Below, piece by piece: positions 1,221 through 2,933 of a stretch of 7,950 nt of DNA. The translations under genes and the position numbers were made by a program. Numbering within the stretch: position 1 is the first letter of the stretch; each line of letters opens with the position of its first letter. The stretch covers positions 1-7,950 of IMG/VR virus record IMGVR_UViG_2547132274_000015; one strand, written 5' to 3'. This stretch comes from a virus (Duplodnaviria > Heunggongvirae > Uroviricota > Caudoviricetes). The notes below the pieces were generated by a model that was not told where the DNA came from, ran no database searches, and saw only the letters and a program-made list of their open reading frames with translations.

Positions 1221-2933
1221 TTATAGTAGTCTGGTAATGCTAAATGCAAACGAACTGGAGATTCCTGCTCCGCTAAGCGTATTGCGCAGGGTCACCCTAA
1301 ATGTATCTACGCCAATATAAGTAACATCACAACTAACTGAATCAGGCGCAGATATAGGTGTTATCTGAACCACATAACCATTAGTAGCTGCTGCGAGCGG
1401 ATGAGAAAACGTTACATCATACACACCAGTAGCATGCGCGTTAACGGATGAAACACCCGGCGCAATGTCTACACTACCATTGGCGTTAATTCTTCCAGAG
1501 CGAGGGATGCTACCAGAGGAAACGGATGTTGCTTTACTCGTTTCTTCCATGAATGTGCAGCCAATGTCGATTACTTCACAATTAGCTCCAGTAACCCAAT
1601 ACGGTCTTGTGCTACTTGGAACGTAAGAGCCTACGCTCTGGAATGTCGTACCATTGAGAATTACAGTTACTTTCCCACCGCCAGAGCTTGTAATATTTAA
1701 GTTGTTTATGGTGTACGCCGTATTGCTGACACGATGGAAGTTTCCGCCGTTAATAATTATGGTGACAGGGCGCGTTCCCGTGTTATCAATGGCAAGGTCA
1801 GAACCACCAGCGTTAGCCTCAAAATATGGGTTATTAAGTACCAAAGCACATGACCCATTAAGACCGTTCACGGCAATCTGCATACCGCCAGTGCCAGTAT
1901 TACCTTGCGTGCCGTTACCCTCACAGGTAAGGCTATTGATGGTAGTCCCTGCGCCCCATCTGTCACCAAGAATACCCCATTGTGTATTCTGGCTTGCGGT
2001 TAATCTGTTGACAGTAATTGCATTAAGTTCTGAAAAATCATCAGAATTAAGCACTCGCCACCCAATACGATTTGCCTGCAGGTACACATTATCCAATTCA
2101 GAAGTCAATACAGCGTCTGTTCGTAAACCTTCGCCGTTGGTATGTCCGTAAGATACTATATTCTCTAACTTGGCATATGCTTTCTTGGTTACGAGAAGAC
2201 CGTAAGACGTTGCTGAGCCTTTAAGCGTAATATTTCCGAGATAATCATACGCATGTACTCGCTGTGTGCCACCAACTGTATCACCGAGCATCTTTAAGTT
2301 GAAATCCGAGGCATGGCAGTTAAATATCGTTTCTGCCATATTTTCTCCGGAATAATGAGCACGGACTCCTGTCGAACCAATAAATTTAGCGTCATAGTTG
2401 CCGTAATCGAGAACGAGTGGTGACGCGATATCGTACACCCCTTGCTTTATTTTTAATGTTCCACCGAAAGGCCACGATGTAAGCGGGTCTTGATATATTT
2501 CATTTTTTATTGCAAATAGCTCCTCTTGGAGATTTTTCCCGCTATTAGTGCCAATGTAAGTAGCCCCTTCATCAGATTGAAGTAACTGCAGAAGCTGTTC
2601 AGGGTCATACTTCAGCAAATTCGGAAAATAGAACTGTTGCGAACCATACGCATCATATACAGCCATTGAATGGCCTTGCTCAGTTACAAATTTGGCAATC
2701 TGCCCGTTGTACACAGGATATCCGGCAGCATTGATAACAATTGGCTGAGAAACAGGGACGTGAGATCCGTCTTCATTCTCTACATAAACCTGTATCTGGT
2801 TTTCAGTATTTACCGGGTCAGTGTCAATTTTACCGATATAAATTTTGCCATTGGCTACGGCTTTAAAAGAACGAGCCATAGTGAAGAGTTGCGAAGGCAT
2901 GCTTACCACAATATTTGCGGTGATATCTGACAT
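1221..2933 (-). CDS. Tailspike protein (P22 gp9 family) with a conserved N-terminal head-binding domain and a divergent right-handed beta-helix receptor-binding domain.
   Basis: Translation from the internal ATG at 2933..2931 begins MSDITANIVVSMPSQLFTMARSFKAVANGKIYIGKIDTDPVN...GHSMAVYDAYGSQ, which I recognise as the P22/Sf6/HK620-type tailspike N-terminal domain. GGAG lies 7 nt upstream of this ATG. The C-terminal ~450 aa are rich in N/G/T/S with repeated short beta-strand motifs typical of beta-helix depolymerases. The ORF-track start at 2981 adds 16 residues (MQSHHGCIISFVWSNE) that have no counterpart in tailspikes and is probably an over-extension. Confidence 0.9.
   Translation of the reverse strand: MSDITANIVVSMPSQLFTMARSFKAVANGKIYIGKIDTDPVNTENQIQVYVENEDGSHVPVSQPIVINAAGYPVYNGQIAKFVTEQGHSMAVYDAYGSQQFYFPNLLKYDPEQLLQLLQSDEGATYIGTNSGKNLQEELFAIKNEIYQDPLTSWPFGGTLKIKQGVYDIASPLVLDYGNYDAKFIGSTGVRAHYSGENMAETIFNCHASDFNLKMLGDTVGGTQRVHAYDYLGNITLKGSATSYGLLVTKKAYAKLENIVSYGHTNGEGLRTDAVLTSELDNVYLQANRIGWRVLNSDDFSELNAITVNRLTASQNTQWGILGDRWGAGTTINSLTCEGNGTQGNTGTGGMQIAVNGLNGSCALVLNNPYFEANAGGSDLAIDNTGTRPVTIIINGGNFHRVSNTAYTINNLNITSSGGGKVTVILNGTTFQSVGSYVPSSTRPYWVTGANCEVIDIGCTFMEETSKATSVSSGSIPRSGRINANGSVDIAPGVSSVNAHATGVYDVTFSHPLAAATNGYVVQITPISAPDSVSCDVTYIGVDTFRVTLRNTLSGAGISSSFAFSITRLL

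Follow-up and report, generated by a model that had tools for sequence, protein, structure and literature searches.

Which surface polysaccharide does the tailspike of a P22-like (Lederbergvirus) prophage engage when its receptor domain shares no sequence with that of P22, and does the spike cleave it? We addressed this question in a 7,950-nucleotide stretch of caudoviricete DNA (IMG/VR record IMGVR_UViG_2547132274_000015, positions 1 to 7,950), referred to here as the window. A reading made from the letters alone (the sequence-only reading) had proposed a mosaic tailspike with a beta-helix receptor domain of unknown specificity, possibly an O-antigen or capsule depolymerase functionally paired with the adjacent acyltransferase. 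At a probability that we put at roughly 80%, the gene encodes the tailspike of an Sf101-like, oacB-carrying prophage of the P22-like group, its receptor is the Shigella flexneri-type O-antigen and its action is likely hydrolytic.

Tailspike gene and its genomic setting

The tailspike ORF had been placed correctly at 1221-2933, with its strand unstated; it lies on the minus strand and is intact, the coding part running from 2933 to 1224 and the stop codon occupying 1223..1221 (Table 1). The product has 570 aa, the 571 reported earlier having counted the stop, and it is indeed shorter than the 667-aa P22 chain. An alternative in-frame ATG at 2981 would make a protein of 586 aa; the homologues of Sf101, E. 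coli G3/10 and an E. coli entry in a 5.8-billion-protein collection (P0001; 566/570 identical, 99%) all begin MSDITANIVV, and a GGAG precedes that start. The exact protein is encoded on contig AEJZ01000041.1 of NCBI assembly GCA_000208525.2, an E. coli assembly.

As in the P22-like late operon, the gene follows the gp7, gp20 and gp16 genes, with an immI remnant. A Mnt/Arc-type repressor gene, 86 aa as annotated in G3/10, is divergent from the tailspike, and past it lie gp16-, gp20- and gp7-like ejection genes together with a DUF2824 gene (ORFs, Pfam/PHROG). On the other side, 53 bp separate the tailspike end from the convergent oacB. The hairpin in this interval was not called by a rule-based terminator scan and was detected by RNA folding (−22.9 kcal/mol, z −4.15); on the minus strand a U-rich tail follows it. 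A terminator is annotated at the corresponding position in Sf6, and the hairpin is likely a bidirectional terminator. On the source contig the prophage end adjoins dacD and sbmC, and the 13-bp att core of Sf101 and phage 2851 (CGTAATCGTGAAA) lies 473 bp beyond oacB, beside dacD. This core marks the sbcB site of Sf101 (PMC4159516), and sister prophages are integrated at bioA-ybhB or elsewhere.

The locus as a whole resembles that of Sf101, whose gene order (ejection genes, mnt-like gene, tailspike, convergent oacB) and sbcB att core are alike. Sf101 differs in its gp16-like ejection protein, a 911-aa transglycosylase against 665 aa in the window, and in its host, Sf101 being a Shigella phage and the window prophage residing in an E. 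coli assembly.

Table 1 Features of the tailspike locus, in window coordinates
Feature	Position	Strand	Basis and remarks
oacB, O-antigen 3/4-O-acetyltransferase	1..1167	+	First 2 codons cut off by the window start
GC-rich hairpin, 10-bp stem	1181..1212	.	Between tailspike and oacB; GCCGCCCTAC-N12-ATAGGGCGGC
Tailspike CDS	1221..2933	-	ORF list and translation; 570 aa plus stop codon
C-terminal beta-sandwich (predicted), residues ~458-570	1224..1562	-	AF2 strands, model residues 369-459
Right-handed parallel beta-helix (predicted), residues ~158-457	1563..2462	-	
Candidate active-site cluster	1731..1922	-	E338 (1920-1922), Y370, E372 (1818-1820), N374, D379 (1797-1799), N384, R401 (1731-1733)
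Helical neck/linker, residues 115-156	2466..2591	-	AF2 short helices (model residues 2-47) ahead of the first beta rung
Mosaic joint, residues ~110-120	2574..2605	-	End of prophage matches; Sf11 gp13 similarity from residue 120
Head-binding (virion-anchor) domain, residues 1-114	2592..2933	-	Pfam PF09008; Sf6/P22 matches
Mnt/Arc-type repressor gene	3022..3315	+	Pfam Arc and Repressor_Mnt; start may be 3055

A conserved anchor joined to an unrelated receptor domain

Residues 1-113 match Pfam Head_binding (PF09008) over the full length of the profile (E 2e-64; 215 bits, the cut-off being 24 bits), and 103 of the first 114 residues are identical to Sf6 gp14, which confirms the P22/Sf6-type head-binding N-terminus proposed earlier. 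In the PDB sequence search, the match to the P22 tailspike (E 9e-48) is limited to residues 1-114, and the P22 and Sf6 chains alike are matched at these residues only. Past residue 114, phmmer, profile-sequence hhalign and the PDB profile search all failed to match the sequence to P22 or Sf6, hhalign aligning the head-binding region and neck and nothing further. The earlier statement that some 455 C-terminal residues do not resemble the P22 endorhamnosidase is borne out by these searches, and we rejected sequence homology to the P22/Sf6 endorhamnosidases on the same grounds together with the 11% identity of the structural alignment.

The joint between the two parts is observed directly in bacterial genomes. 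When the whole window was compared by megablast with 5426 complete E. coli genomes, about 1700 matched the ejection genes and the head-binding part with matches ending at 2586-2605 (residues 110-116), whereas the part of the gene past the joint (1221-2590) was present in two. The mosaic joint is therefore real. Along the tailspike gene, DNA identity to Sf6 likewise stands at 76-100% up to nt 360 and at about 40% from there on. The proposal of a domain-swap architecture is thus supported, a conserved N-terminus being joined to a shorter, sequence-unrelated receptor domain, and residues 1-114 would serve as the conserved anchor that docks a presumably trimeric spike on a P22/Sf6-type tail.

P22 gp9 has in common with the window spike a head-binding domain followed by a beta-helix; it differs in its sequence-unrelated receptor domain, its length of 667 aa and the host polysaccharide that it addresses. 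Sf6 gp14 (PDB 2vbk, 2vbm) has a 90% identical head-binding domain, occupies the corresponding genomic position, adjoins an O-acetyltransferase as the window spike does, and presumably has the same substrate, the S. flexneri O-antigen. However, it has 623 aa against 570 aa, the sequence likeness ends at residue 114, and the Sf6 Oac is 23% identical to OacB.

The receptor module belongs to Shigella phages and changes anchors

Among isolated phages Sf101 is the closest, and full-length comparison with its tail spike gives 87% identity (505/580). Within the receptor domain, identity is 85% to Sf101, about 86% to gp13 of Sf11, 83% to the SfX fragment, 99% to E. coli proteins annotated as prophage-encoded and 90-96% to prophages of E. 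coli PapM-32-1 and G3/10, the entire G3/10 tailspike (WP_072016580) being 96% identical. The S. flexneri chromosome CP026799 carries a 92% allele of the receptor domain, and in the 5.8-billion-protein collection alleles from both E. coli and S. flexneri form a graded series. The SfX comparison rests on L05001, the original SfX gtrX clone, which covers just the last ~128 tailspike residues and is 83% identical over them. In every respect open to testing, the window protein is a P22-like tailspike and a member of the Sf101/SfX/Sf11 receptor-domain family.

The two-module architecture of the window tailspike is that of Sf101 orf15 (AII27839), for which Jakhetia and colleagues (Jakhetia et al. 2014, PMC4159516) already described a conserved N-terminus and a divergent C-terminus. 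Apart from the divergence of the receptor domain, the Sf101 protein differs in that 10 aa of its neck are tandemly duplicated, which accounts for most of the length difference. Kapi1, which has been called Sf101-like, was considered as a further relative and set aside, its spike being different.

Profile searches assign the receptor domain to phrog_17420 (‘tail protein’; E 5e-234). Pfam yields nothing past PF09008 in the window protein and does not match PF12708 (pectate-lyase-like / rhamnogalacturonase A) there; one distant relative, P0076, reaches 27.2 bits against a PF12708 cut-off of 27. NCBIfam returned no family. The PDB sequence search finds 9occ, ‘putative tail protein gp13’ (the Sf11 tailspike), at E 3.5e-258 over residues 120-569, and a PDB profile search gave, beyond 9occ, nothing except N-terminal anchor modules.

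Sf11 is a siphophage (Cedarrivervirus), and its spike illustrates how far the module travels: gp13 matches the window protein from residue 120 to 569, and its anchor is unrelated, being made up of PF18668 and of helices that attach to the distal tail protein, where the window spike has PF09008. Versions of the receptor module at 74-88% identity are found fused to the P22 head-binding domain, to an Sf11-type N-terminus with PF18668, to a T7 tail-fibre N-terminal domain plus PF18668, and to N-termini that have no Pfam match; the same set includes an anchorless 447-aa protein. A literature search (HRP29) linked the T7-anchored versions to no isolated phage. Further out, when 1.84 billion cluster representatives were scanned exhaustively with HMMER, 363 clusters proved to be related, mostly at 27-40% identity; 60 of these clusters score E 1e-30 or better.

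At the nucleotide level the gene is pieced together from segments of different alleles. Compared with the G3/10 allele, identity is 98-100% in most 90-nt blocks and just 76-77% in nt 1351-1530 of the gene; against Sf101, two segments fall to 63-68%. Per-block variability among close alleles shows mild hotspots at residues 286-300, 406-420 and 436-450 and no clear specificity patch. Given this patchwork and the ~15% divergence of the receptor domain, the serotype range of the window spike may differ from that of Sf101 and Sf11.

A seroconversion slot downstream of the spike

The oacB product is identical to Sf101 OacB at 386 of 388 positions and carries Pfam Acyl_transf_3; OacB has been shown by NMR to 3/4-O-acetylate RhaIII (PMC4159516). 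GC content is 33.8% in oacB, 44% in the receptor domain and 51% in the ejection genes.

We surveyed the downstream slot in 16 loci representing nine tailspike alleles, and in all 16 it is occupied by a known or probable O-antigen modifier. The occupant is oacB in the window source, Sf101, G3/10 and two other loci (L013 and L014), at least 99% identical where compared, and in L015 it is an acyltransferase of the length of the oacB product. SfX, PapM-32-1, three surveyed loci (L010-L012) and S. flexneri CP026799 carry gtrX-gtrB-gtrA instead, the GtrX proteins of PapM-32-1, L010 and SfX being 98.6-99.5% mutually identical. One slot contains a 44%-identical acyltransferase beside a 57%-identical receptor domain.

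The SfX-type spikes (L05001; CP026799; PapM-32-1) combine head-binding domain and receptor module as the window spike does, have 570 aa where they are full, and are also followed by a convergent moron; their receptor domains are 83-92% identical to that of the window, and their moron glucosylates where oacB acetylates. The pairing with the adjacent acyltransferase suggested by the sequence-only reading therefore stands as a link to an O-antigen-modifying neighbour and falls for the acyltransferase as such, since sister loci have gtrX-gtrB-gtrA. It is the tailspike and the seroconversion slot that are paired. In the lysogen, oacB would acetylate RhaIII of the very polymer that the spike targets, and this acetylation may protect the lysogen.

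The probable receptor is an S. flexneri-type O-antigen

The identity to the Sf101 spike brings with it a published host range, so that the receptor specificity, which had been called unknown, can be approached through this phage. The serotypes of S. flexneri on which Sf101 plates are Y and the glucosylated 1a; on 1b and 3b it plates about 10^5-fold lower (PMC4159516). The sequence-only reading had looked to full-length identity with a characterised tailspike as the observation that would overturn it, and Sf101, with that identity and a known host range, largely supplies it.

Sf11, for its part, grows on the serotype Y strain PE577, its growth is blocked by waaC, waaG and waaL deletions, and it is unaffected by ompA, ompC, ompF or ECA mutants (PMC12724387). 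According to this report, gp13 is trimeric and Sf11 depends on the O-antigen for infection; its authors term gp13 ‘LPS-hydrolyzing’ and present no hydrolysis assay (PMC12724387). By homology the window tailspike is probably a trimer too.

The lysogens offer a further view of the receptor. A single complete E. coli genome, that of G3/10, contains the whole window, at 97.2% identity. Because our literature search found no serotype for this strain, we read its O-antigen locus directly, and it proved to be the O13/O129/O135 cluster, with rfbBDAC, the O13/O129/O135 wzx and wzy, and rhamnosyltransferases. This cluster corresponds in E. coli to that of S. flexneri 1-5/X/Y. The annotation of the G3/10 cluster shows frameshifts and an IS5 insertion. 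The O13/O129/O135 wzx occurs in 27 of the 5426 E. coli genomes, among them both carriers of the receptor domain, G3/10 and PapM-32-1; the chance expectation for both carriers is about (27/5426)^2 = 2.5e-5 (n=2).

Four independent lines, namely Sf101 plating, the LPS requirement of Sf11, the lysogen genotype and OacB, lead with good confidence to an S. flexneri-type O-antigen as the receptor. The module would recognise the Rha-Rha-Rha-GlcNAc backbone, which is made by E. coli O13/O129/O135 as well.

A depolymerase of some other specificity, directed at a capsule or at an O-antigen not of the S. flexneri type, would be in keeping with the ~15% distance of the receptor domain from those of Sf101 and Sf11, with the recombination patchwork inside the domain and with the many capsule depolymerases among its structural neighbours. 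We nevertheless consider it improbable, since alleles at 83-96% identity occur in phages and prophages of S. flexneri as well as in E. coli of the O13/O129/O135 cluster, Sf11 requires the O-antigen ligase, and the adjacent moron is in every case a known or probable modifier of the O-antigen, OacB in the window included. The capsule target entertained earlier is likewise disfavoured by the kinship with the Sf101 and Sf11 receptor domains, the OacB neighbour and the O13/O129/O135 lysogens, all of which point to O-antigen.

Predicted fold and candidate active site

An AlphaFold2 (AF2) monomer model of residues 110-570, computed from a 34-sequence alignment (mean pLDDT 87.3), consists of a short helical neck, about ten beta-helix rungs and a C-terminal beta-sandwich. 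Foldseek returns the Sf6 tailspike as its top match (E 6e-7, TM-score 0.33, 11% identity). The predicted right-handed parallel beta-helix agrees with the beta-helix receptor domain of the sequence-only reading. From the model, the fold class of the receptor domain is clear and its enzyme class is not.

We also considered PDB 9occ as a solved structure of the receptor domain and rejected it: gp13 residues 4-59 alone were built into the map, and for the receptor domain an AlphaFold prediction was fitted into density of low resolution (PMC12724387).

Across 34 homologues reaching down to 26% identity, E338, E372 and D379 are the only invariant acidic residues, and N304, N340, Y370, N384, R401 and Y437 are invariant as well, as is N374 in the candidate cluster. 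In 43 diverse representatives the same set is 88-100% conserved, E338 being absent in five and E372 in four of these distant relatives. In the AF2 model three short strands follow one another, LTCE, YFE and NFHR, and their last residues are E338, E372 and R401, respectively; D379 is placed in the strand following E372, on the same rung. Conservation and modelled position together suggest E338, E372, D379 and R401 as candidate active-site residues, and the likely active site would be a groove on the central rungs that they line. The tailspikes of P22 (E359/D392), Sf6 (E366/D399) and HK620 (D339/E372) likewise use acidic residues from adjacent rungs with a spacing of about 33-34 positions.

Since the substrate polymer contains no uronic acid, cleavage by beta-elimination (a lyase) is excluded. 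We hold with moderate confidence that the receptor domain is a glycoside hydrolase, probably an endorhamnosidase; a literature search for enzymatic assays returned none for any member of the Sf101/SfX/Sf11 receptor-domain family.

Could the domain instead be an adhesin that binds O-antigen without cleaving it? We regard this as unlikely. Three acidic residues and an arginine remain invariant down to 26% identity and are modelled on adjacent rungs, and such a cluster is expected of an active site sooner than of a binding surface. To our knowledge, moreover, the characterised P22-like podophages with beta-helix spikes (P22, Sf6 and HK620) all have endoglycosidases, which counts against a purely adhesive spike.

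A spike that modifies the O-antigen as a deacetylase or esterase and leaves the backbone uncut, like those of Moo19 and B2, is the least probable of the readings that we weighed. Shigella phages with esterase tailspikes are described in one report (PMC11654681), and an O-acetyltransferase adjoins the window spike. Yet the predicted fold is a pectin-lyase-like beta-helix, Pfam and NCBIfam detect no esterase family, and the receptor domain also stands beside gtrX, where lysogens glucosylate their O-antigen and do not acetylate it. On the preferred reading of a glycoside hydrolase, the spike would cleave the O-antigen hydrolytically, so that the virion works its way down to the outer membrane.

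Discussion

A mosaic tailspike of this kind is already known, because the mosaic of Sf101 orf15 was described in 2014 and work on the Sf11 virion in 2025 showed the module in place. For the prophage in the window, the receptor can now be assigned with good confidence to the S. flexneri-type, O13/O129/O135 O-antigen.

More tentatively, with odds short of even, the module may have evolved independently as a second enzyme acting on the S. flexneri O-antigen, with an active site sequence-unrelated to that of Sf6 and perhaps a different linkage or serotype tolerance, of which the plating of Sf101 on glucosylated 1a besides Y might be an example. If so, being spread over four or more kinds of virion anchor, it would serve as a ready-made, exchangeable host-range cartridge for both Shigella and E. 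coli O13/O129/O135. The module is present in several isolated Shigella phages and would make a sensible candidate for a second probe or depolymerase specific to the S. flexneri O-antigen besides the Sf6 tailspike. Together, the tailspike and its seroconversion moron, with oacB or gtrX occupying one slot, provide a clean example of modular exchange.

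A receptor module on several virion anchors

The receptor module of the window tailspike (residues 115-570) recurs, at 74-88% identity, joined to at least four types of virion anchor (homologous proteins P0033, P0034, P0044, P0038, P0049 and P0040): the P22 head-binding domain, Sf11-type helices with PF18668, the T7 tail-fibre N-terminal domain with PF18668, and unannotated N-termini. A 447-aa protein represents a stand-alone version of the module without an anchor. Moreover, P0072, a truncated 333-aa protein of 260 member sequences that combines the head-binding domain with a partial receptor domain, lies on a 4.5-Mb contig and is very frequent within one genome set, possibly as the relic of a degraded prophage that carried this kind of tailspike.

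Between its head-binding domain and beta-helix, the tail protein of Sf101 has a neck with a tandem duplication of 10 aa (compared with window 2460-2540), which is absent from the window allele and from that of E. coli G3/10. The C-terminal part of the Sf101 tail spike was reported to have very limited homology to SfX (PMC4159516), whereas the terminal 128 codons in the SfX gtrX clone L05001 (L009) are 83% identical to the window receptor domain. The "SfX" reference used in that report is NC_017328, which may explain the discrepancy.

Coordinates of features in the window and in compared loci
Feature	Locus	Position	Strand	Description
oacB (acyltransferase)	Window	1-1167		386/388 identical to Sf101 OacB
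10-bp GC-rich inverted repeat	Window	1181-1212		GCCGCCCTAC-N12-ATAGGGCGGC; separates convergent oacB and tailspike genes
Mnt-type repressor	Window	3022-3315	+	Arc ribbon-helix-helix and Mnt C-terminal domain
gp16-like ejection protein	Window	3405-5402		665 aa
gp16-like counterpart	Sf101 (L001)	2866-5601		911 aa; annotated transglycosylase
Tail protein	Sf101 (L001)	6001-7743		LQEELFAIKN x2 in neck
att core	Window source prophage (L007)	8467-8479		CGTAATCGTGAAA; adjoins dacD
O13/O129/O135 cluster	E. coli G3/10 (L004)	26588-30812		Annotated frameshifts and IS5 insertion

Neighboring genes and integration sites

The window gp16-like protein equals Sf6 gene 13 in length (665 aa), while the counterparts in Sf101 and in S. 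flexneri CP026799 (797 aa, SLT-containing) differ from it in size; therefore, the ejection module is likewise mosaic across these otherwise similar prophages. The mnt-like gene, whose start codon is ambiguous (3022 or 3055), separates the gp16-like gene from the tailspike and stands alone there, with neither an arc nor an ant partner. Its best PHROG carries the label "partition protein ATPase" and its Sf101 annotation is "chromosome segregation ATPase"; both ATPase labels look like propagated mis-annotations.

The acyltransferase gene oacB, which the window start truncates by its first two codons, has a GC content of 33.8%. The phage genes range from 44 to 51%, and the difference points to oacB as a foreign moron. 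The inverted repeat beside it was not picked up by a rule-based terminator scan. It probably acts as a terminator in both directions, given its RNA fold (-22.9 kcal/mol, z -4.15) and a minus-strand U-rich tail.

Integration sites vary among prophages with this tailspike (loci L007; L002, L008, L010, L013, L018; L014, L015). The window source prophage occupies the sbcB site, the same as Sf101, and those of G3/10, PapM-32-1 and S. flexneri CP026799 are at bioA-ybhB. In two other assemblies, the prophage lies beside an integrase whose neighbors are a gene of the formate/nitrite-transporter family (PF01226) and one of the mlaA family (PF04333).

O-antigen cluster of a lysogen

The annotated frameshifts in the G3/10 cluster affect rfbG, wzy and a gtrA-like gene. 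Assembly errors could account for these frameshifts; alternatively, the strain may be rough, and if so, G3/10 would be resistant to the spike of its own prophage.
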